A stretch of DNA of 64,000 nt from Bacillota bacterium (GTDB lineage Bacteria > Bacillota > JAAYKD01), in NCBI GenBank assembly GCA_963666425.2, contig OY762825.2:2304001-2368000 (forward strand), written 5' to 3'. Both the position numbers and the translations under genes were made by a program. The stretch's first letter is position 1; each line of letters starts with the position of its first letter. The notes beneath the pieces were generated by a model. The model searched no databases and was not told the DNA's origin. It saw only the letters and a program-made list of their open reading frames with translations. Positions 4,559 through 13,214 of the stretch are shown here, one piece after another.

Positions 4559-6103
4559 ATGATGTCGTTAGTTTCTTTGAAATTTGCACTCTTTCTGTTG
4601 GTTGCGGTCATTGGTTATTACCGTATACCAAAAAAATGGCAATGGATATGGCTGTTGGCCTTCAGTTACGTTTATTATGCGTCTGCCGGTCTGAAGATCG
4701 TACCTTTTTTGCTTTTTTCTACCGGCGTATCCTATCTGGCAGGCCGAATGCTGGACCAAATCAAAAACAGCCAAACCGAAAAAACTCTGAAACAGAAAAG
4801 GAAACGCTTTGTCTTATTGCTGACGCTGCTCCTGGATTTCGGCATGCTTGTGGTCATTAAATATACGAATTTCGCTTTAATCAACATGAATCGTCTGCTG
4901 GATCTGCACCTTTCCCTGCAGACTTTTCTGTTGCCGCTGGGTATCTCGTTTTATACCTTCCAATCGGCAGGTTATATCATCGATGTCTATTGGGAGAAAT
5001 ACGAAGCCGAAAGGAATCCCTTTCGGTTTGCTTTGTTTGTTTCCTTTTTCCCGCAGATTCTGCAGGGCCCCATCGGCCGTTTCGACCGGCTGGCGCGTCA
5101 GCTCTATGAAGAGCATGAGTTTAATTGGCCGCGCATGGAACGCTCCCTGCAGTTGATTCTCTGGGGATTCTTTAAAAAAATGGTGATCGCCGATAATGCA
5201 GCCCGCGTGGTTGGTGAGGTTTTCTGGGGCAACAATTATCAAAAATATACCGGCACCACGATTTTGGTGGCAGTCTTGGGCTATTCCATTCAGCTCTACG
5301 GAGATTTTTCGGGCGGTATGGATGTCGTCAAAGGGGCTGCCAATCTGTTTGGCATTGAGTTGGACGAGAATTTTAAACGGCCTTTTTTTGCAGTTTCCAT
5401 TGCGGATTTTTGGCATCGCTGGCATATTACGCTGGGCACCTGGATGAAGGATTATGTCTTTTATCCCTTATCGCTATCCAAAACGATGAATCGCTTTGGC
5501 AAATCTGCCCGAAAACTTCTGGGCAAAAACATGGGGCGCGCTTTGCCGATTTGCGTGGTGAATATCATTGTATTTTTCATCGTTGGTGCTTGGCACGGCG
5601 CGAATTGGAAATATATCGCTTATGGTTTGTATAACGGACTGATCATCGGCTTCAGCGGCTTGATGATGCCGACCGCCAGGAAATGGAAAATCGCTTGTCA
5701 TATCAATGATAAATCAACAGCCTGGCGCATCTTTCAGATTTTCCGAACTTTTATCCTAGTCAATATCAGCTGGTATTTTGACCGGGCCGATAATCTGACG
5801 CATGCCTTCGCGCTGATGCAGAAAACGGTGACCGATTTTCACTTTTCTGATTTCTTGGACGGCACGCTGATGTTGAAAGGGGTAAGCCAGATAGGGCTGC
5901 ACCTTTACAACATCGTCTTGCTTGGTTGTGTCGTGCTATTTATTGTCAGTTATTATCAGGAAAAAGGTGTTCGGATCGGCGAAGTGCTGCGCGCCAAACC
6001 GGTTGCTTTGCGCTTTGTCGTCTATCTGCTGCTTCTTTATGCTTTGCCGGCATTCGGAACACTGTCGTCATCCGGAGGAGGCTTTATCTATGCGCAATTC
6101 TAA
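4559..6103 (+). CDS. MBOAT family acyltransferase (AlgI/DltB-like)
   Basis: PLGISFYTFQ, GPI, FWHRWHITL, catalytic WHG, C-terminal FIYAQF motif. Confidence 0.92.
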   Translation: MMSLVSLKFALFLLVAVIGYYRIPKKWQWIWLLAFSYVYYASAGLKIVPFLLFSTGVSYLAGRMLDQIKNSQTEKTLKQKRKRFVLLLTLLLDFGMLVVIKYTNFALINMNRLLDLHLSLQTFLLPLGISFYTFQSAGYIIDVYWEKYEAERNPFRFALFVSFFPQILQGPIGRFDRLARQLYEEHEFNWPRMERSLQLILWGFFKKMVIADNAARVVGEVFWGNNYQKYTGTTILVAVLGYSIQLYGDFSGGMDVVKGAANLFGIELDENFKRPFFAVSIADFWHRWHITLGTWMKDYVFYPLSLSKTMNRFGKSARKLLGKNMGRALPICVVNIIVFFIVGAWHGANWKYIAYGLYNGLIIGFSGLMMPTARKWKIACHINDKSTAWRIFQIFRTFILVNISWYFDRADNLTHAFALMQKTVTDFHFSDFLDGTLMLKGVSQIGLHLYNIVLLGCVVLFIVSYYQEKGVRIGEVLRAKPVALRFVVYLLLLYALPAFGTLSSSGGGFIYAQF

Positions 6104-7052
6104 AAGGGTCATCCTCTTTGCGGCATTTTTCACGGTCTGTCTGCTGCTTAACGTCATTTTGAATTATATTTTGATTCCGAATAATATCATGAGAATCAAG
6201 CTGCATAACCTGGAAACAACGACCTATGATGACTTATTCCTTGGTACGTCGCATGGCTTTTCGGCTGTGGATCCTCTGGTTGTAGACAGCATTACAGGGC
6301 GGAAAAGTACCAATCTCTGTATCTGGGGAGAGTATCCCAGAGATTCTTATTACCTTCTGAAAGAGGCATGCAGAGAGCACAAACCGGAACGCGTAGTTTA
6401 TGAGCTGGATCCCACTTATTGGATCAATAAGGATATTGATACCTATTATTATACGCAATTGTTTAATTATATGCCTTGGTCTCAGGTCAAGGCAGAGTAC
6501 TTCTTGGCGAAAATTACCTCGGCGGATTTTAGAGCTGTTTTATTCCCCTGGTTTAATTATCAATTGCAGTGGCAGCCGAATCTGGCCAATCTGGAATTAA
6601 AACAAACGGACAATTATAAAAACTACGGCCTTGATACATTTGATCTTTCCTATCAAACTTTGAAAGAAGAAGGATTCTTATTTTTCAAAGATACCAAGCG
6701 GACAAAGTCTCAATATGTCTCTCTTTGGGATGAAAAGAAAATGCTGGTGAATTCGTATCGGTATTTTGATAAAATGGTGACCTTCTGCCGGGAAAACGAC
6801 ATTGAACTGGTGGTTTTTACCACGCCCGTGCCACAGGAGACATTGGAGCTTTATCCGGAAAACTACCAAAAAGCATTCCAGTATTTTTCGAAAATGCTGC
6901 AAGGCTACGGTCTTACCTATTATAATTTCAATTACATCCAATTGGATGGTTTTGATAAGAGTCTTGTCGGTTATTCCGATTATGATGGACACATGTATGG
7001 TGATACTGCCGGTTCCTTCAGCAAATCCCTGGGAGACTATCTGAAAAAATAA
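6090..7052 (+). CDS. Membrane-anchored SGNH-type transferase (DltD/AlgJ/PatB-like)
   Basis: ATG at 6090 with GGAGGAGG RBS overlapping the MBOAT end; N-terminal TM helix, GTSHG serine motif, C-terminal DYDGH (DxxH). Confidence 0.7.
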   Translation: MRNSKRVILFAAFFTVCLLLNVILNYILIPNNIMRIKLHNLETTTYDDLFLGTSHGFSAVDPLVVDSITGRKSTNLCIWGEYPRDSYYLLKEACREHKPERVVYELDPTYWINKDIDTYYYTQLFNYMPWSQVKAEYFLAKITSADFRAVLFPWFNYQLQWQPNLANLELKQTDNYKNYGLDTFDLSYQTLKEEGFLFFKDTKRTKSQYVSLWDEKKMLVNSYRYFDKMVTFCRENDIELVVFTTPVPQETLELYPENYQKAFQYFSKMLQGYGLTYYNFNYIQLDGFDKSLVGYSDYDGHMYGDTAGSFSKSLGDYLKK

Positions 7053-7080
7053 AGTCGGGCGAATCAATAAAAAGGTATAA

Positions 7081-7117
7081 AAAAAAGCAGGCACTGTCAG
7101 GTGCCTGTTTTTTTTTA
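7081..7117. terminator. Bidirectional intrinsic terminator
   Basis: A-tract, GCAGGCAC/GTGCCTGT stem, T-tract, between convergent genes. Confidence 0.75.
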
Positions 7118-7183
7118 TCGGAACTGTTTGCCTGCTTTCAGCCTTGTTTGGCTGCAAAATCCATTTGAGGCGGCAAGGAATCA

Positions 7184-7330
7184 TTAAATGACTCTTTTGC
7201 CCTGCACTAAACGGATGATCACCAAAACCACGGCGATGACTAAGAGAATGTGCAAAAGGCCTCCGCCCGTAGTAGTAACCAATCCAAGTAACCATAAAAC
7301 AATCAGGACGACTGCAATCGTGTATAACAT
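7184..7330 (-). CDS. Small membrane protein, lmo0937-like family (48 aa, below the ORF-track cut-off)
   Basis: Manual translation MLYTIAVVLIVLWLLGLVTTTGGGLLHILLVIAVVLVIIRLVQGKRVI; GAAGGAG RBS. Confidence 0.8.
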   Translation of the reverse strand: MLYTIAVVLIVLWLLGLVTTTGGGLLHILLVIAVVLVIIRLVQGKRVI

Positions 7331-7384
7331 AATGCACTCCTTCTTCTTATGAGAATCATTTCTTTGCTTTTTCGATTCGATTTA

Positions 7385-7801
7385 CTAATCGGATAAGGTC
7401 TTCTTGACAGGGTAATCGACTGATTGATCCGCAGGATCAATCGGCGTGTATTCGACCCATTCCGGACGGACCCTTCTGGGCCTAACCAGTCCCAGGAGAA
7501 TCAGGCCAATGACACCGGTAACCAGCATCGCGATGAGGGTAGCGGGTTCCAAAAGCGGCAAGGCATCGATGGTGGTCAGGCTTACCGGAAAGATCCCATC
7601 AAAGATACCAACAATGTATTGCGTGACAGTGTAAATTCCTTTGACAAAAACATTGGTCGGATCCGCTCCCAGTAATTTGAAAAACAAGCGAAACGCCAGG
7701 GTGCATTCGAGCAAAGCTGTTAAGGCTCCGAACAGACGATATAAGAAAACATTTCCATCCACCGTTGTTTGCAGATCAGTTGAGTTAGTCTTTCTTTCCA
7801 T
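7385..7801 (-). CDS. YggT-like membrane protein
   Basis: Hydrophobic helices, LLGADPTNVFV..IY..T...V..F.GIFP pattern; ATG at 7801 with GGAAGG RBS. Confidence 0.6.
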   Translation of the reverse strand: MERKTNSTDLQTTVDGNVFLYRLFGALTALLECTLAFRLFFKLLGADPTNVFVKGIYTVTQYIVGIFDGIFPVSLTTIDALPLLEPATLIAMLVTGVIGLILLGLVRPRRVRPEWVEYTPIDPADQSVDYPVKKTLSD

Positions 7802-8109
7802 TTTTAATTCCTTCCTTTTTTTTAACACTTGTTATTACAATTCCGCAGAAGACGGACCGTTTTTGGCGATTTTCCAACAATAACAGGTAGAAGAGGAAGT
7901 GACATGTCTTTTCCATATCCGTATCATAACATAGTTATGATTAAATGTCAACATAATATAATAATTATTATTAATATAATAATACGAATTATCGGATGAA
8001 TAAAATAGCGCCTAATTTTACGTCTGTTCCGCATGACTTTTTAGCGGCAATTTAGGCGGGGAAATTTCCAGAGCAAGAAGAAAACATCAAAAAAAAAATC
8101 AGTAAATAG

Positions 8110-8162
8110 ATTGACAAAGTTCAATATGATGGTTATACTCAATATATAGATAAAGTTCAATA
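8110..8162 (+). promoter_or_regulatory. Promoter of the ars operon with two candidate ArsR operator boxes
   Basis: TTGACA (8111-8116), 17 bp, TATACT (8134-8139); ATTGA-CAAAGT-TCAAT over the -35 and ATAGA-TAAAGT-TCAAT downstream. Confidence 0.7.
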
Positions 8163-8186
8163 AGTATAGATCGGGGGACTGTTAAG

Positions 8187-8513
8187 ATGAAATATTCCTA
8201 TGCAGAATTTGTGCCGGTGTTTAAGGCACTGGCTGACGAAACCAGGTTGAAAATATTGGAAATGCTGTCGTGCGGAGAAATGTGCGCCTGTGCAATTTTG
8301 GAGAGCTTTCGCATCAGCCAGCCAACGCTTTCTTATCATATGAAAATATTGATGGAGTGCGGTTTGGTGGATGGCCAGAAGGACGGCATTTGGATGCGCT
8401 ATACCTTAAATCAAACGCGTTTTCAGGAATTGCGGGAATTCTGTCATTTATTCTGTGGGGATCATGAGGACTGTATTTGTCATCACCCCAAGGCAGACGA
8501 GTGCTGCAAATAA
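8187..8513 (+). CDS. arsR: ArsR/SmtB family metalloregulator
   Basis: FKALADETRL, CGEMCAC metal site, SQPTLSYHM HTH, Cys-rich C-terminal tail. Confidence 0.9.
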   Translation: MKYSYAEFVPVFKALADETRLKILEMLSCGEMCACAILESFRISQPTLSYHMKILMECGLVDGQKDGIWMRYTLNQTRFQELREFCHLFCGDHEDCICHHPKADECCK

Positions 8514-8530
8514 CAAGGGAGGAGATTGGA

Positions 8531-9319
8531 ATGAAAGACAAAGAAGTAGTGCGGGAATCAATCAGAAAAAGATACGGCAGCATTGCGAAGAATAAACCTG
8601 CGGCTGGCTGCTGCAGCAGCGGCTGCGACTGCAATGGTGCCCCGATGGGTAGGACAGAGGCGTCCTTGCGCTTAGGTTATTCCGAAGAAGATTTGAAGAG
8701 TGTGCCGCTGGATGCCAATCTCGGGCTGGGCTGCGGCAATCCGCTGGCCATCGCCGCATTGAAATCAGGCGAAACGGTGCTCGACTTAGGCAGCGGCGGC
8801 GGTTTCGATTGCTTTTTAGCACGCCGACGGGTTGGCGAGCAAGGTTTCGTCATCGGCGTCGATATGACGCCTGCGATGATCAAACTGGCGCGCAAGAATC
8901 TGCAAAAGAGCGGGTATACCAATGTTGAATTTCGCTTAGGGGAAATTGAGCATTTGCCGGTGGCTGACGCGACGGTCGATCTGATTATTTCCAATTGTGT
9001 GATCAATTTATCCGTAGAAAAAGAACAAGTGTTCAAAGAAGCCTATCGGGTCTTAAAAAAAGGCGGCAGATTATCCATTTCCGATTCGGTTGCTACGGCA
9101 GAATTACCGCAAGAAGCGAAACAGAGTTTAGCCAAAATTATTGGCTGCATTGCCGGTGCTGAGTATATTGAAACCTTGAAAAGCATGATGCAAAGGGCGG
9201 GCTTTACAGACCTGGTATTCACGCCAAGAGACAACAGCAAAGAAATCATCGCTACTTGGATCCCGGGCAGCAAAATCGAAGATTATGTTGCTTCCTATCT
9301 GATTGAAGCAGTCAAATAG
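8531..9319 (+). CDS. arsM: Arsenite S-adenosylmethionine methyltransferase
   Basis: N-terminal CCxxxCxC, GLGCGNP, LDLGSGGGFD, ISNCVINL, GCIAGA; follows arsR. Confidence 0.93.
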   Translation: MKDKEVVRESIRKRYGSIAKNKPAAGCCSSGCDCNGAPMGRTEASLRLGYSEEDLKSVPLDANLGLGCGNPLAIAALKSGETVLDLGSGGGFDCFLARRRVGEQGFVIGVDMTPAMIKLARKNLQKSGYTNVEFRLGEIEHLPVADATVDLIISNCVINLSVEKEQVFKEAYRVLKKGGRLSISDSVATAELPQEAKQSLAKIIGCIAGAEYIETLKSMMQRAGFTDLVFTPRDNSKEIIATWIPGSKIEDYVASYLIEAVK

Positions 9320-9355
9320 GATTTTCGGCGAAATATCGACAGAGGGAGAAAGGGG

Positions 9356-9643
9356 ATGCAAGCGATGGAAAAAGAATATGCCTTGCTGTTTAAAGCGTTG
9401 GCTGATCAAACCAGACTAGAGATTGTTGACCTGATTTCCTGTGGCGAGTTATGTGCCTGTGAAATTCTGAAGTCGTTTTCCTTCAGCCAATCCACCCTAT
9501 CCTACCATATGAAGCTTTTGACAGACAGTGGTTTGGTCAACGTGCGGCGCGACGGCAAAAAGATGATGTATTGCATCGACCCGGAAAAAGCGCTTGTTCT
9601 GATCGATTTTTGGGAAAATTTTGAAATTAAAGCAGAAAATTAG
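9356..9643 (+). CDS. arsR: Second ArsR/SmtB family regulator
   Basis: FKALADQTRL, CGELCAC, SQSTLSYHM. Confidence 0.88.
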   Translation: MQAMEKEYALLFKALADQTRLEIVDLISCGELCACEILKSFSFSQSTLSYHMKLLTDSGLVNVRRDGKKMMYCIDPEKALVLIDFWENFEIKAEN

Positions 9644-9658
9644 TAACGGAGGATCATT

Positions 9659-10036
9659 ATGGAAAAAGAACGCTATGGTTTTATTATGTGCGTCTGCACA
9701 GGCAAGTGTCCCGGTTTTCGTGCTATGGATATCTGGGATTTTATCAATCAGGTACGGGTGGAATTGCCGGTTGAATATGCTTTTATTCATCCGCAGCTTT
9801 GCGAAGAGGATGGCGATCGCTTTTTAGCCGATTTTCTGCAAGCCAAGCGTAAGGTTGTGATTGCGGCCTGCGCACCCAATATGCAAAAGAAAATGTTCAA
9901 ACAAGCCTTCCTGCAAGCCGGGATGAATATGGAGACGGATTGTGTGATGCTGGATATCCGCGATATGACGAACGACAAAGCTTTTCAAAAGGTGAAAGAT
10001 GCCTTGAGCCAGCTTGGATTTGAGGAGGATCTGTAA
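9659..10036 (+). CDS. Small heterodisulfide reductase subunit A-like (N-terminal domain) Cys protein
   Basis: CVCTGKC, HPQLC, VVIAACAP, DIRD motifs resembling the HdrA N-terminal domain. Confidence 0.65.
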   Translation: MEKERYGFIMCVCTGKCPGFRAMDIWDFINQVRVELPVEYAFIHPQLCEEDGDRFLADFLQAKRKVVIAACAPNMQKKMFKQAFLQAGMNMETDCVMLDIRDMTNDKAFQKVKDALSQLGFEEDL

Positions 10037-10037
10037 A

Positions 10038-10331
10038 ATGAGCGAAAGCACATTTATGGGTGTGGAACGCAGTAAAATTGATTGGGCGCCGCGGATTGAC
10101 CCAACCAAATGCAATGACTGTATGGAATGTGATAAATTCTGTCCGCATCAGGTGTTTGCCGTGCGGGAAAATGCCAGCCCGAAACTGGTCGTGCAAAATC
10201 CTGAGAACTGTGTTGTTTTTTGCCGGGCTTGTTCCAAGACCTGTGGACCGGACGCGATCTCTTTTCCCGATAAAAAAGCGACGACAGCCGCCATCAAAGA
10301 ACTGCGCCAGGAGGATGAGAATCATGGCTAA
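10038..10331 (+). CDS. 2[4Fe-4S] dicluster ferredoxin
   Basis: CNDCMECDKFCP and CVVFCRACSKTCG motifs; GAGGAGG RBS. Confidence 0.88.
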   Translation: MSESTFMGVERSKIDWAPRIDPTKCNDCMECDKFCPHQVFAVRENASPKLVVQNPENCVVFCRACSKTCGPDAISFPDKKATTAAIKELRQEDENHG

Positions 10332-11187
10332 ATCGTTTGCGGTGCTGCCATGCAATGGCTTGGATAAATCTGCCGGGTCACTTGCGAGAGAAGTGGCTCT
10401 GCGGCTTTGTGAAACGGGAGAAAACGAACTGATTTGTCCTGTGTTTTATCGGGTCGCTGAGGCAAAGTACAACAAGCTAACAGAAGAAAAACCACTTTTG
10501 GTGATTGACGGCTGTGCAGTGCGCTGTGCCAGTAAATTGGCGGCGGAAAAAGGTTTAAAAATCAGTGAGAAGATCAGCATCAGTGAAGAAGCAAAAGTCA
10601 ATGGTCTGGAATTACCCGATCATCTGCGCTTAACGGCGGCAGAAATTGAATTTGCCCATCAGCTTGCAGAAAAAATCGGCAGGCAAGCAAGCGGCGCGCA
10701 GCCGGTAGCTGCTGAAGAGGCATTGCAATTCCCTGCTGAGCTGCATTTTCAGACTTATACCAAAGACAAGTTTATCTTTAAAATACCCGATAATGAGGGA
10801 TTCTATTTCAATGAGAATGATGTTTGGGTCTATGTGATTGGTGACAAAGCAAGACTCGGTGTGACTGACTTTGTGCAGCACAGTCTGGCTGATATCATTT
10901 ACTTTACCCCGCCTGTGCTTGGCAGCCATGTGGAGCAATTTGAGGAAGCCGGCAACATCGAATCCGGTAAAGCCGTTTTTGAAATCGTCAGTCCGGTCAG
11001 CGGTGTGGTTACAGCGGTCAACGAGGCGCTGCTGGACGCACCCGAACTGATCAATCAAAGCCCCTACGAAAAAGGCTGGATTCTGGAAATGAACTTAACG
11101 GCATTTTCCGAAGATCAAGACCTGCTGCACCAATTTGCAGGTTACTTTCCGGTATTGAAAAGAAAGGTGGATGAGTTTCATGTCTAA
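10324..11187 (+). CDS. DGC (putative zinc-binding) domain fused to glycine-cleavage H-like lipoyl carrier domain
   Basis: N-terminal PCNG..ICP..VIDGCAVRCA; C-terminal RLGVTDFVQHSLADI, IESGKAV (lipoyl-Lys position), SPVSG, INQSPYEKGW. Confidence 0.8.
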   Translation: MAKSFAVLPCNGLDKSAGSLAREVALRLCETGENELICPVFYRVAEAKYNKLTEEKPLLVIDGCAVRCASKLAAEKGLKISEKISISEEAKVNGLELPDHLRLTAAEIEFAHQLAEKIGRQASGAQPVAAEEALQFPAELHFQTYTKDKFIFKIPDNEGFYFNENDVWVYVIGDKARLGVTDFVQHSLADIIYFTPPVLGSHVEQFEEAGNIESGKAVFEIVSPVSGVVTAVNEALLDAPELINQSPYEKGWILEMNLTAFSEDQDLLHQFAGYFPVLKRKVDEFHV

Positions 11188-11581
11188 AGTAATTGTGGTA
11201 CCCTGCAGCGGGATCGGTAAGGTTTACGGCTTAATGGCAAGAGAAGCTGCCTTGGCTGTCACCGGGCATTTGGCAAAAGCCGACGCCGAAACGGTTTGTT
11301 TGGCGCATATTGTGACCGGAGACGAGGAAGTAAGGGCGAAAGTTTGCGGAAAAAACTGTATTTCAATTGATGGCTGCGCTGCCCTTTGCTCTTTTCATAG
11401 TCTGGAAGCTGCTGGCGGTATCGTGCAAGGCAAATTTCGTTCCGTGGATGAGATGCGAAATCATCGGGGCGCGAATCCCGGCACCGGCAGTGATCTGACG
11501 GAAGAGGGTTGGCAGATTACCGATGAATTGGCAGCCAAAATAGCGGCGCGAGTGGAAGCGATCCAGAAGGAGGCAGAGTAA
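11180..11581 (+). CDS. DGC domain (putative zinc-binding) protein
   Basis: PCSG, TVCL, SIDGCAALC motifs. Confidence 0.78.
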   Translation: MSKVIVVPCSGIGKVYGLMAREAALAVTGHLAKADAETVCLAHIVTGDEEVRAKVCGKNCISIDGCAALCSFHSLEAAGGIVQGKFRSVDEMRNHRGANPGTGSDLTEEGWQITDELAAKIAARVEAIQKEAE

Positions 11582-11983
11582 ATGGCGGATAAAGTTGGAG
11601 TTCTTGCCTGCAGCGGAGAAGAATACTTAGGTGGCACTTTAGCCAGGTTAGCGGTTCGTCAAGTGATGAGCAAACTGCGTCCGGGCCGGGTATCGACGCT
11701 TTGTCTGCCTTTGTATATCGCCGGCGGTGAGGAAGAACGTGAATTTGCCAAGAAGTATCCTTGTATTGCAGTAGATGCCTGCAGCAAATCGTGTGCAGAA
11801 CGCGCTACCGTCAAATACAGCGGTGCGGTGAAAGATGTCCTGTTGGTCTCCGATGTGATCGGAACGGAGGCGGCTCTCAGCAAAACTGTTTCCGCTCGGG
11901 ATTTAAAACCGGAACATTATGCGATGATGGAGAAAATCGCCGCCGCAATTGCTTTGAAAGTCGATGCGATTTTAGCAGAATAA
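11582..11983 (+). CDS. DGC domain (putative zinc-binding) protein
   Basis: ACSG, TLCL, AVDACSKSCA motifs; starts directly after the previous stop. Confidence 0.78.
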   Translation: MADKVGVLACSGEEYLGGTLARLAVRQVMSKLRPGRVSTLCLPLYIAGGEEEREFAKKYPCIAVDACSKSCAERATVKYSGAVKDVLLVSDVIGTEAALSKTVSARDLKPEHYAMMEKIAAAIALKVDAILAE

Positions 11984-11988
11984 AGAAA

Positions 11989-12037
11989 AAAAGAAGTCTT
12001 GGCAGCATTACAGCTTGGTTGCCAAGGCTTCTTTTGC
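11989..12037. terminator. Bidirectional intrinsic terminator
   Basis: AAAAGAAGTCTTGGCAGC...GTTGCCAAGGCTTCTTTT hairpin between convergent genes. Confidence 0.7.
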
Positions 12038-12055
12038 ATATTTGGTTTGATTTGC

Positions 12056-12769
12056 TTAGAATCGAAGCAAGTTGAGATACCATTGGATCAGATTGAGCAA
12101 CTGCGGCCGAAATAAAAGCCAAATCGCTGCTGCCAGACAAATATAAGGTCCTAAAGGACGGCTGTCGCCGATGTGCAGGCGCTTCAGCAGCATCAGAATC
12201 CCAAAAGTCAAACCGGCGAGCAGAAGCGTGGTGAGTAAGATAAACCCGACATCCGGCCAGCCGCAAAAAATAGCCAAAGCAGCCAGCAATTTGACATCCC
12301 CAAACCCAAGAGCTTCCTGATGACGCATAACAGACCAAAGACAGCCAACCAACCAGGGCAGGAGGGCTGCGATGGCGAGCCCGATGCCGGCGGCCCAGAG
12401 GGCAGCGGAGGTGTTGACGATCATCAGACGCAGGATACCTAACACCGCCAGACCGGTGCAGAATTGATCGGGAATGATACTAAAGCGGGCATCGGACAAA
12501 GCAATCATCCAAAGCAGCAGCAAGGCCAGCGTATTCAAAATCGGAAAAGTGATGCCCAAATAGACTTTTGCGATCAGTGCAGCCAGGGTAGCAAGCAGAA
12601 TGCAACTCAGCGGCAGCCAGGGCAGCCTTGGCCAGCGGATGGCTTTTTGCAGAGCCGCATGCGGTTCTTCACCGGTCTCCGCAAACCAGGCGGCCGGCAG
12701 CAGATTCATCAGATGGTAAGCCGCAAAGCCGCAGCCACCGCCCAAAACAGCAAAAATGAACTCCTTCAT
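12056..12769 (-). CDS. Prepilin peptidase (A24 family)
   Basis: Multi-TM; SDARFSIIPD and GFGDVKLL catalytic aspartate motifs, PLGPYI. Confidence 0.85.
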   Translation of the reverse strand: MKEFIFAVLGGGCGFAAYHLMNLLPAAWFAETGEEPHAALQKAIRWPRLPWLPLSCILLATLAALIAKVYLGITFPILNTLALLLLWMIALSDARFSIIPDQFCTGLAVLGILRLMIVNTSAALWAAGIGLAIAALLPWLVGCLWSVMRHQEALGFGDVKLLAALAIFCGWPDVGFILLTTLLLAGLTFGILMLLKRLHIGDSRPLGPYICLAAAIWLLFRPQLLNLIQWYLNLLRF

Positions 12770-12983
12770 GATTTAATCACCATTTCCTCTTGATCTCTTT
12801 TTTTTAGTATAGCAAAATTTTGTGGCAATGGCAAATTTTTTTGAGTGAGAATGCAATTACGCCGGAAATCTCGGCTGCATTGATAAATTCACGACGGAGA
12901 GTGCAGGTCTTTTCAGCCGCACAGGGAATTAAGGAAGTAAACAAGTTGACATGTTGCTGATGAGGAAAGGTGTGTATAGGAAG

Positions 12984-13214
12984 ATGTCAAGAAATCAATG
13001 GTTTATTTTGACTGTGGTATTTGTTTTCGTGCTTGTGGTTATCAGCAGCCCGGCTGCTGTGGTTGTGGCTGCAGTGAGTGCGGCGGAGAGTGTGGATGGC
13101 GGCAGCGGCGGCTTCCAGGCGATCGTGCAACGCTATTCTGCTTTTGCTCCCTTATTGGTCGGAATTGTGCTGATTGCGCTGCGGCGGAAATTTTTCCCCG
13201 GTAAACACGATTAG
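12984..13214 (+). CDS. Small hypothetical membrane protein
   Basis: Two hydrophobic segments and a basic C-terminus; purine-rich RBS. Confidence 0.5.
   Translation: MSRNQWFILTVVFVFVLVVISSPAAVVVAAVSAAESVDGGSGGFQAIVQRYSAFAPLLVGIVLIALRRKFFPGKHD

Follow-up and report, generated by a model that had tools for sequence, protein, structure and literature searches.

A conserved lipoyl-carrier, iron-sulfur and DGC-protein cassette in an arsenic-methylation operon of a Bacillota bacterium: a possible dithiol relay for arsenicals

Why should an operon for arsenic methylation carry a lipoyl-carrier protein, two iron-sulfur proteins and three cysteine-bearing DGC domains? The question is raised by a 64,000-nucleotide stretch of a Bacillota genome (GCA_963666425.2, contig OY762825.2, positions 2,304,001 to 2,368,000), the whole of which is referred to here as the window, where eight co-directional genes occupy positions 8187-11983 of the + strand in the order arsR1-arsM-arsR2-orf4-fdx-DGC::GcvH-DGC2-DGC3. 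Open reading frames (ORFs) were taken from a program-made list and gene starts were adjusted by ribosome-binding sites, giving intergenic distances of 17, 36, 15, 1, -8, -17 and 0 nt in operon order. An earlier note, made from the sequence alone, had described this gene content, its compact one-strand arrangement and a terminator at its end, and had read the whole as an arsenic-methylation operon extended by an undescribed module. The description was borne out by Pfam and NCBIfam searches, by the gene spacing and by terminator prediction, and a family search of the operon proteins likewise found no arsC, acr3, arsD or thioredoxin within the operon. Since the same eight genes were present in the same order in a same-genus genome (G001, hereafter the congener), with proteins 85-94% identical, the arrangement is not the product of chance; a second assembly also carries the entire stretch on one contig, with 39 differences. 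The operon appears to be an ArsR-controlled join of two units, arsR1-arsM on the one hand and arsR2 with a five-gene cassette (orf4 to DGC3) on the other, and the cassette appears to be a mobile accessory that arsenic-resistance islands carry in anaerobes of many phyla.

That the five genes form one conserved unit was established by the neighbourhood profiling that the earlier note had suggested. A scan of one genome per species gave at least 560 cassette loci, and the 80 most similar to the window's DGC::GcvH fusion were analysed, these being the best 80 and not a random sample. BLAST against all ORFs of each locus found orf4, fdx, the fusion, DGC2 and DGC3 all present in 72 of the 80. Six of the other eight loci lie at contig ends (L010, L053, L055, L068, L071 and L073) and the remaining two have a split gene (fdx in L058, DGC2 in L065), while gene order was uniform except in L030, where DGC2-DGC3 come first. 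In the protein collection 1215 homologues of the fusion were found at E ≤ 0.001, and each of the 120 best has both domains. Judged by record title, the 80 loci belong to Bacillota, Bacteroidota, Acidobacteriota, Actinomycetota, Planctomycetota and Armatimonadota, with one metagenome-assembled genome (MAG) labelled Cyanobacteria. For lineages so far apart the proteins are unusually well conserved, orf4 for instance being 62-82% identical across phyla. Presence is patchy (3 of 41 relatives and, this genome included, 7 of 301 sampled from its phylum), and the window cassette matches copies from Lachnospiraceae, Clostridium and Lacrimispora at 64-66%, against lower values of 57% for another Negativicutes MAG and 58% for a genome of the same order. 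This combination of patchy presence and cross-lineage similarity fits horizontal spread. The carriers were anaerobes of soils, sediments, sludge and wastewater.

In the window, the cassette stands directly behind recognisable arsenic genes. The product of arsM (8531-9319, +; 262 aa) passes the NCBIfam threshold for arsenite S-adenosylmethionine methyltransferases (NF008823, 338.4 bits against a cut-off of 263; Methyltransf_31, 1.4e-41) and bears the cysteine-containing motifs AAGCCSSGCDC, GLGCGNP, ISNCVINL and IIGCIAG, whose cysteines, picked out by motif, may be the catalytic As(III)-binding residues of the N-terminal pair region and, two in number, of the methyltransferase domain. Both arsR1 (8187-8513, +; PF01022, 1.6e-16) and arsR2 (9356-9643, +), the latter immediately before the cassette, encode ArsR/SmtB repressors by HTH_5 and by NF033788 (91.3 and 86.0 bits, respectively, against a cut-off of 55), with a CxC motif in the DNA-binding region that reads SCGEMCAC in ArsR1 and SCGELCAC in ArsR2 and that recurs in 58 of 70 ArsR-like ORFs across the 80 loci. 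To survey the wider neighbourhood, ORFs within 7 kb of each cassette were clustered and cluster representatives named by Pfam and NCBIfam; loci were then counted by BLAST against a single representative of each family, hits having to cover half of the query or more, and the counts are lower bounds. An ArsR gene was the commonest neighbour (53/80 loci, or 61 by clustering), followed by an ArsE-type thioredoxin-like protein (36/80), Acr3 (19/80), an ArsF-family protein (19/80), a DsbD/CcdA-type membrane protein (19/80, or 34 by clustering), ArsC of the low-molecular-weight (LMW) phosphatase type (18/80), thioredoxin (15/80), ArsM (10/80), ArsA (9/80), ArsP (8/80) and ArsD (7/80). A dedicated ars gene was present in 42 of the 80 loci, and an ars gene or ArsR in 64, a strong association of the unit with arsenic genes. 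By rough estimate, not by a computed control, about 2% of random 15-kb stretches would include a dedicated ars gene, given that such genes lie at some two to four sites in the 3.2 Mb of this genome.

The centre of the cassette is the fusion gene (10324-11187, +), whose 287-aa product matches both PF08859, the DGC family (70.8 bits), and PF01597, the H-protein family (102.3 bits against a cut-off of 22.2), and comprises an N-terminal four-cysteine DGC domain, a helical linker and a C-terminal H-protein-like lipoyl carrier. Cys10, Cys38, Cys64, Cys68 and Lys216 were invariant among 49 aligned sequences. Lys216 stands in the motif IESGKAV and aligns with the lipoyl-lysine (ESVKA) of solved H proteins, so that the residue expected of a lipoyl carrier is in place and its lipoylation is predicted. 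Further support for the assignment was seen in the structural model (mean predicted local distance difference test, pLDDT, 88.9), the C-terminal domain of which superimposes on the plant H protein 1dxm with Z 22.2 and a root-mean-square deviation (rmsd) of 1.2 over 131 residues. Although it shares fold, family and lipoyl-lysine motif with GcvH, the fusion differs from it in being joined to a DGC domain, in having no gcvT or gcvP nearby and in falling under both GcvH equivalog cut-offs (TIGR00527, 91.9 against 115.85 bits; PRK01202, 107.3 against 117 bits), and it shares 38% identity with the canonical GcvH encoded elsewhere in the genome. The lipoate dependence proposed from the sequence gained support from the neighbourhood as well as from the invariant lysine, with a dihydrolipoyl dehydrogenase (Lpd) gene in 28 of the 80 loci and a lipoate-protein ligase (LplA) gene in 16. 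The Lpd representative is a true dihydrolipoyl dehydrogenase (TIGR01350, 517 bits against 409), its gene lying immediately upstream of orf4 in inspected loci such as L011 and L087, and the LplA representative scored equally clearly (TIGR00545, 436 bits against 280), being encoded in L087 by the gene immediately downstream of DGC3. In the genome under study LplA and Lpd were found solely in the glycine-cleavage cluster at C1:1118203-1123779, together with the canonical gcvH, and the cassette here must therefore use the enzymes of that cluster. A second cysteine pair was observed at residues 16 and 19 of the fusion (window 10369-10380; consensus DKCAGC), where cysteine occurs in 15 and 13 of 17 aligned fusions, respectively; as both residues are serine in the window copy and in the congener, this pair would be dispensable.

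Two iron-sulfur proteins are encoded between arsR2 and the fusion. The first, orf4 (9659-10036, +; 125 aa), belongs to no Pfam family and weakly matched the first ~95 residues of NCBIfam HdrA models (5.5e-5). A phmmer search matched HdrA of 7bkb (5.6e-4), and Cys11, Cys13, Cys48 and Cys71 aligned with cysteines of HdrA in both 7bkb and 5odc. The HdrA cysteines bind a [4Fe-4S] cluster. The four orf4 residues and Cys17, which lies opposite a non-cysteine in HdrA, were invariant in an alignment of 26 sequences. All seven Foldseek matches of the AlphaFold model (pLDDT 89.4) at E ≤ 0.001 were HdrA chains, with template-modelling (TM) scores of 0.62-0.68, and MvhD ranked far lower. As the sequence alignment and the structural matches agree on HdrA, orf4 is best modelled as a free HdrA N-terminal domain, which in Hdr is an iron-sulfur electron-entry module, and Cys17 as an additional conserved cysteine beside the presumed cluster. 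The likeness to the HdrA of Hdr/Mvh and Hdr/Fdh complexes stops at this domain: orf4 scored 21 bits against the cut-off of 1400 for full HdrA, is free-standing, has no thioredoxin-reductase/FAD or ferredoxin domains and carries the extra invariant cysteine. Searched with HMMER against 1.84 billion representatives, the orf4 profile gave no more than 133 clusters at E ≤ 0.001, and almost all of these were fragments or short proteins standing alone; the family is tight and hardly ever forms part of a larger protein. Informative fusions were sought among three longer proteins and rejected, one being a frameshift-like join with the ferredoxin and two appearing chimeric; the Protein Atlas returned unnamed or 'HdrA-like' clusters alone. 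The second protein, Fdx (10038-10331, +; 97 aa), matches Fer4 families and has the motifs CxxCxxCxxxCP and CxxxCxxCxxxCG, all eight cysteines being invariant among 24 sequences, as expected of a bacterial-type 2x[4Fe-4S] ferredoxin. Its identification as HgcB was rejected (NF040864, 37.7 bits against a cut-off of 99).

The remaining two genes encode free-standing DGC proteins, DGC2 (11171-11581, +; 136 aa; PF08859, 42.8 bits) and DGC3 (11582-11983, +; 133 aa; PF08859, 53.0 bits). All three DGC domains of the cassette exceed the PF08859 cut-off of 27 and have four conserved cysteines, which are Cys12, Cys43, Cys69 and Cys73 in DGC2 (n = 25) and Cys10, Cys41, Cys67 and Cys71 in DGC3 (n = 22), the window copy of DGC3 reading DAC and not DGC. 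DGC2 and DGC3 are paralogues by hhalign (99.7%), with the invariant cysteines at equivalent positions, and no homology was seen between the DGC domains and orf4 (hhalign probability 0.4%). Sequence search found no solved structural relative of the DGC domain. The best solved match to its model was an uncharacterised Wolinella protein, 3pu6 (Z 8.7, rmsd 3.7, 115 residues), and further matches were to flavodoxin-like folds at Z about 7-8, near the search background; the fold is accordingly described here as 'flavodoxin-like alpha/beta' and no closer assignment is claimed. The DGC3 homologues of L011, L022, L031 and L039 have cysteine-rich C-terminal tails of GCGC and CCCC type, resembling the soft-metal-binding tails of metallochaperones, whereas the window DGC3 has no tail.

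Much of the toxicity of arsenite and methylarsenite results from their binding to vicinal dithiols such as dihydrolipoamide. The reading that we favour, to which we give a little less than an even chance, is that the cassette is a lipoyl/cysteine relay, fed by ferredoxin or NADH, that keeps dithiols reduced so that they can bind, pass on or reduce arsenicals; the ferredoxin-driven reductant or chaperone role offered in the earlier note is likewise an inference. In such a scheme, unit 1 (arsR1-arsM) would methylate arsenite, and the lipoate ligase of the gcv cluster would lipoylate Lys216 of the fusion. Because true Lpd and ligase genes adjoin the cassette in many genomes, the lipoyl group would be attached and would cycle between disulfide and dithiol, and because two iron-sulfur proteins are invariably present, low-potential single electrons would enter or leave. 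A cluster next to a cysteine is how ferredoxin:thioredoxin reductase (FTR) and Hdr couple one-electron carriers to disulfide chemistry, and the resemblance of orf4 to this arrangement suggested the chain proposed here, in which reduced cellular ferredoxin would pass electrons to the cassette Fdx, then to the [4Fe-4S] cluster of orf4 and on to the dithiols, with Cys17 allowing one-electron input to drive two-electron disulfide reduction. The likeness to FTR, in which electrons pass from ferredoxin to a [4Fe-4S] cluster by a reactive cysteine and so reduce a disulfide, is one of logic and not of sequence or fold, and the disulfide reduced here would be a different one, on the lipoyl group or between two DGC cysteines. 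By the proposed chain both the lipoyl arm and the cysteine sites of all three DGC domains would be held as dithiols, which NADH could also bring about in the Lpd-carrying loci. The reduced dithiols would then capture As(III) or methylarsenite, MAs(III), and hand it over to ArsM here and to efflux systems elsewhere, and they may in addition re-reduce oxidised ars enzymes. A bolder generalisation, which we hold tentatively and think rather doubtful, is that anaerobes of many phyla use a dedicated lipoylated protein in arsenic defence or transformation, served by a private iron-sulfur chain or Lpd and by three DGC domains. Such a lipoyl machine might serve to escort or sequester As(III) and MAs(III), or it might be an enzyme for anaerobic arsenic reactions to which no enzyme is yet known to belong, for example in re-reduction during methylation cycles, demethylation or the turnover of thio-arsenicals.

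Several points weigh against the relay. Each of its functional steps rests on inference, and no dedicated ars gene was found within 7 kb in 38 of the 80 loci, nor any ars gene or ArsR in 16. The CxC motif of the ArsR family occurs in Cd/Pb sensors as well. Sulfur-transfer genes are also neighbours of the cassette (rhodanese and cysteine desulfurase in 13/80 loci each), as is hgcA (7/80), and the four DGC cysteines may be structural zinc sites, as the Pfam and NCBI names of the family would have it. The RNA data consist of two 151-nt contigs from a wastewater metatranscriptome run (X22), covering 10090-10240 in fdx and 10369-10519 in the fusion gene and differing from the window at 2 and 1 positions, respectively; they indicate that a near-identical strain is present in that sample, and transcription is possible, but so is DNA carry-over, and they prove neither transcription nor co-transcription. 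Finally, the replacement of DGC cysteines by selenocysteine, for which the earlier note had recommended checking homologues, found no support: a read-through scan gave an in-frame TGA in 1 of the 80 loci, at L065:8085-8087 in an Acidobacterium MAG, where a TGA takes the place of the cysteine codon in the DGC motif of DGC2 itself. Selenocysteine at this codon was rejected, as there was no stable hairpin resembling a selenocysteine insertion sequence (z +1.2) and as, in the L065 genome, SelA had no match and SelB and SelD none over cut-off, the completeness of that genome not being given. The TGA is probably an error or an inactivating change. No proteins truncated at a TGA in place of a DGC cysteine were seen among 17 of 36 short proteins, a set whose length range of 30-69 aa may exclude them.

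The strongest rival to the relay is that the module is a catalytic reductase, in which low-potential electrons and the lipoyl arm reduce an arsenic substrate and no binding or hand-over is involved. Candidate substrates might be As(V), the pentavalent methyl and dimethyl arsenicals MAs(V) and DMAs(V), or aromatic arsenicals, and the chemistry might perhaps extend to an anaerobic reaction of the demethylation type. The true Lpd in 28 loci, which implies redox turnover of the lipoyl group, and the invariable presence of two iron-sulfur proteins would suit a reductase as well as a relay, and no ArsC of the LMW-phosphatase type was found within 7 kb in 62 of the 80 loci. ArsE-type and ArsF-family neighbours point the same way, NCBIfam naming the ArsF family as a nitroreductase subunit for nitrophenyl arsenicals. 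General redox chemistry, however, does not require a low-potential donor for the reduction of arsenate or methylarsenate, ArsC does occur near the cassette in the other 18 loci, and no known substrate-reducing active-site domain was found by Pfam or NCBIfam in the operon proteins. This genome moreover has an ArsC beside acr3, in an arsenic island ~62-67 kb before the window start (C1:2237071-2242301) that holds arsR, LMW-phosphatase-type arsC, acr3, an ArsE-type thioredoxin-like gene and arsP; a further cluster, arsR-trx-dsbD-trx3, lies at C1:98095-101371, and the window operon is therefore not the sole arsenic locus of the genome. Altogether we regard the reductase as unlikely, although the best placed of the alternatives.

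The earlier note's view of the cassette as an extension of an arsM operon stood for this genome and its congener, where the two are fused, and did not hold in general, arsM being found in 10 of the 80 loci as against Acr3 in 19 and ArsC in 18. It is on this point that a second rival depends, namely that the module is a dedicated ArsM helper which re-reduces the ArsM disulfide in each methylation cycle and so replaces thioredoxin in anaerobes. The shared operon of window and congener and its lack of a thioredoxin gene are in keeping with this, as are the loci in which arsM is placed close by. The arsM of L083 stops one base short of orf4; L039 and L049 have an arsR-arsM pair behind DGC3 in the same orientation; and arsM also comes after the cassette on the same strand in genome G006 (locus L087, on the same contig as L018), where the order is arsR-lpd-cassette-lplA-arsM. 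As the placement of arsM differs among these loci, the joining of arsM and cassette appears to have happened repeatedly and independently. On the other side, 70 of the 80 loci have no arsM within 7 kb, and Acr3 (19), ArsC (18) and ArsA (9) occur without it; this genome has a single arsM, but thioredoxin-like genes exist at other places in it. The helper is thus quite unlikely, and rather than an appendage of ArsM the cassette is best taken for an arsR-led component of arsenic islands, joined variously to methylation, efflux or reduction genes. The arsM of L087 (L087:11155-12807) encodes 550 aa, the N-terminal stretch of which weakly matches a 'DF family (seleno)protein' domain (45 against 70 bits).

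A third explanation, improbable on present comparisons, would place the cassette in a sulfane-sulfur or thio-arsenical pathway, where persulfide processing makes or breaks As-S bonds, or would even make it unrelated to arsenic. It draws on the sulfur-oxidation system sHdr-LbpA, which is reported to pair Hdr-like proteins with GcvH-like lipoate-binding proteins under ArsR-type control (PMC6067878, 10.1101/2023.12.18.572138, PMC12423496) and which is the closest characterised system in logic. Both have a GcvH-like lipoyl carrier outside glycine cleavage and the 2-oxoacid complexes, an association with Hdr-related iron-sulfur proteins, lipoate ligases of their own in many loci and ArsR-type regulators (PMC6067878). 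Besides the rhodanese and desulfurase genes counted above, a Se/S-carrier and TauE were each found near the cassette in 4 of the 80 loci. Unlike sHdr-LbpA, however, the cassette has no HdrB or HdrC (CCG domains), full flavin HdrA, DsrE, TusA or rhodanese core, Pfam and NCBIfam finding no HdrB, HdrC, DsrE or TusA anywhere in the operon; it has instead three DGC domains, a small ferredoxin and the HdrA N-terminal domain alone, without a flavin domain. It also adjoins arsenic genes and not sulfur-oxidation genes, the enriched neighbours being dedicated arsenic genes, and its regulator ArsR2, which carries CxC, scored 46.8 bits against the BigR model for persulfide/sulfite sensors, far under the cut-off of 155.

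Least probable of all is a module for soft metals (Hg, Cd, Sb, Se, Te) or thiol stress in general, sitting in mixed metal islands without arsenic specificity, since the commonest specific neighbours are Acr3, ArsC, ArsM, ArsA, ArsD and ArsP and since the neighbour clusters of at least 3 loci that were run against Pfam (29 of 45 clusters) included no mer or cad genes, even though ArsR/SmtB sensors span many metals as a family, a cation-diffusion transporter cluster occurs in 5 loci and a true hgcA lies within 7 kb in seven. The hgcA-containing loci are L034, L037, L041, L042, L046 and L049 (Bacteroidota) and L067 (Planctomycetaceae), and the cluster representative L037:6246-7277 is a true hgcA (NF040863, 437 bits against 275). 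Mercury- and arsenic-methylation genes co-occur in islands with the cassette. In L041 the order is hgcA, small ferredoxin, arsM.

Returning to the relay as the preferred reading, its nearest precedents in arsenic biology are ars operons with thiol accessories, such as ArsD-ArsA, ArsE/ArsF/ArsG and, in Pseudodesulfovibrio mercurii ND132, an arsR5-arsP-arsE operon that ends in a lone PF08859 protein described as of unknown function (bioRxiv 10.1101/2022.10.17.512643). These share ArsR control with the cassette, and small cysteine-rich proteins beside efflux, reduction or methylation genes, the ND132 protein providing the precedent for a DGC protein. The cassette departs from described ars systems in adding a lipoyl carrier, an HdrA-N-like protein and a ferredoxin. 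Full-text literature searches found no description of the five-gene set, in agreement with its proposal as an undescribed system, although operon tables in the supplements of arsenic-genomics papers may mention the genes. If the relay is real, dihydrolipoamide, the classic target of arsenite, would have been recruited as a dedicated arsenic-handling group, and placing a lipoyl protein of the cassette's own under an arsenic sensor would be a principle new to metalloid resistance. Protein-bound lipoate would gain a third role in addition to those in 2-oxoacid/glycine metabolism and in sHdr sulfur oxidation, and the cassette is a candidate for the source from which strict anaerobes draw reducing power and self-protection while they methylate arsenic. 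The cassette brings in uncharacterised families, the DGC domain and the free HdrA-N-like protein, and is a compact, highly conserved marker of arsenic islands in metagenomes; its occurrence near arsM and hgcA gives it environmental weight where arsenic and mercury methylation matter.

Expression of the eight genes would start from a sigma-70-like site, TTGACA-17-TATACT, at 8111-8139 of the + strand (-35 at 8111, -10 ending at 8139), which matches the consensus at 11 of 12 positions and is the best of the operon region. It is flanked by a 22-nt direct repeat (copies at 8105-8126 and 8141-8162, 86% alike), a candidate ArsR operator, and comparison with the same-genus genome showed this promoter/repeat stretch (8105-8162) to be better conserved than its upstream flank. 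No comparably good promoter was found inside the operon, the front of arsR2 having weak matches of 9/12 at most and no further copy of the 22-nt repeat. Rfam gave nothing over threshold across window positions 7000-13000; both strands gave hits below threshold to the threonine operon leader at 7037-7141 (37.7 and 28.9 bits, gathering score 55), at and shortly beyond the 3' end of the + strand ORF 5922-7052, and these are probably due to chance. An intrinsic terminator hairpin follows at 11989-12035, with a stem of 18 bp that is preceded by an A run and followed by a U run; its fold (-29.8 kcal/mol, z -5.0) was equalled by none of 200 shuffles, and it probably acts bidirectionally, serving both the operon and a convergent prepilin-peptidase gene at 12056-12769 (-). 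A last observation concerns the two regulators: the C-terminal tail of ArsR1 (window 8454-8510) is rich in Cys and His, with seven Cys and three His in 19 residues, whereas ArsR2 has no such tail, and the two may sense different ligands.

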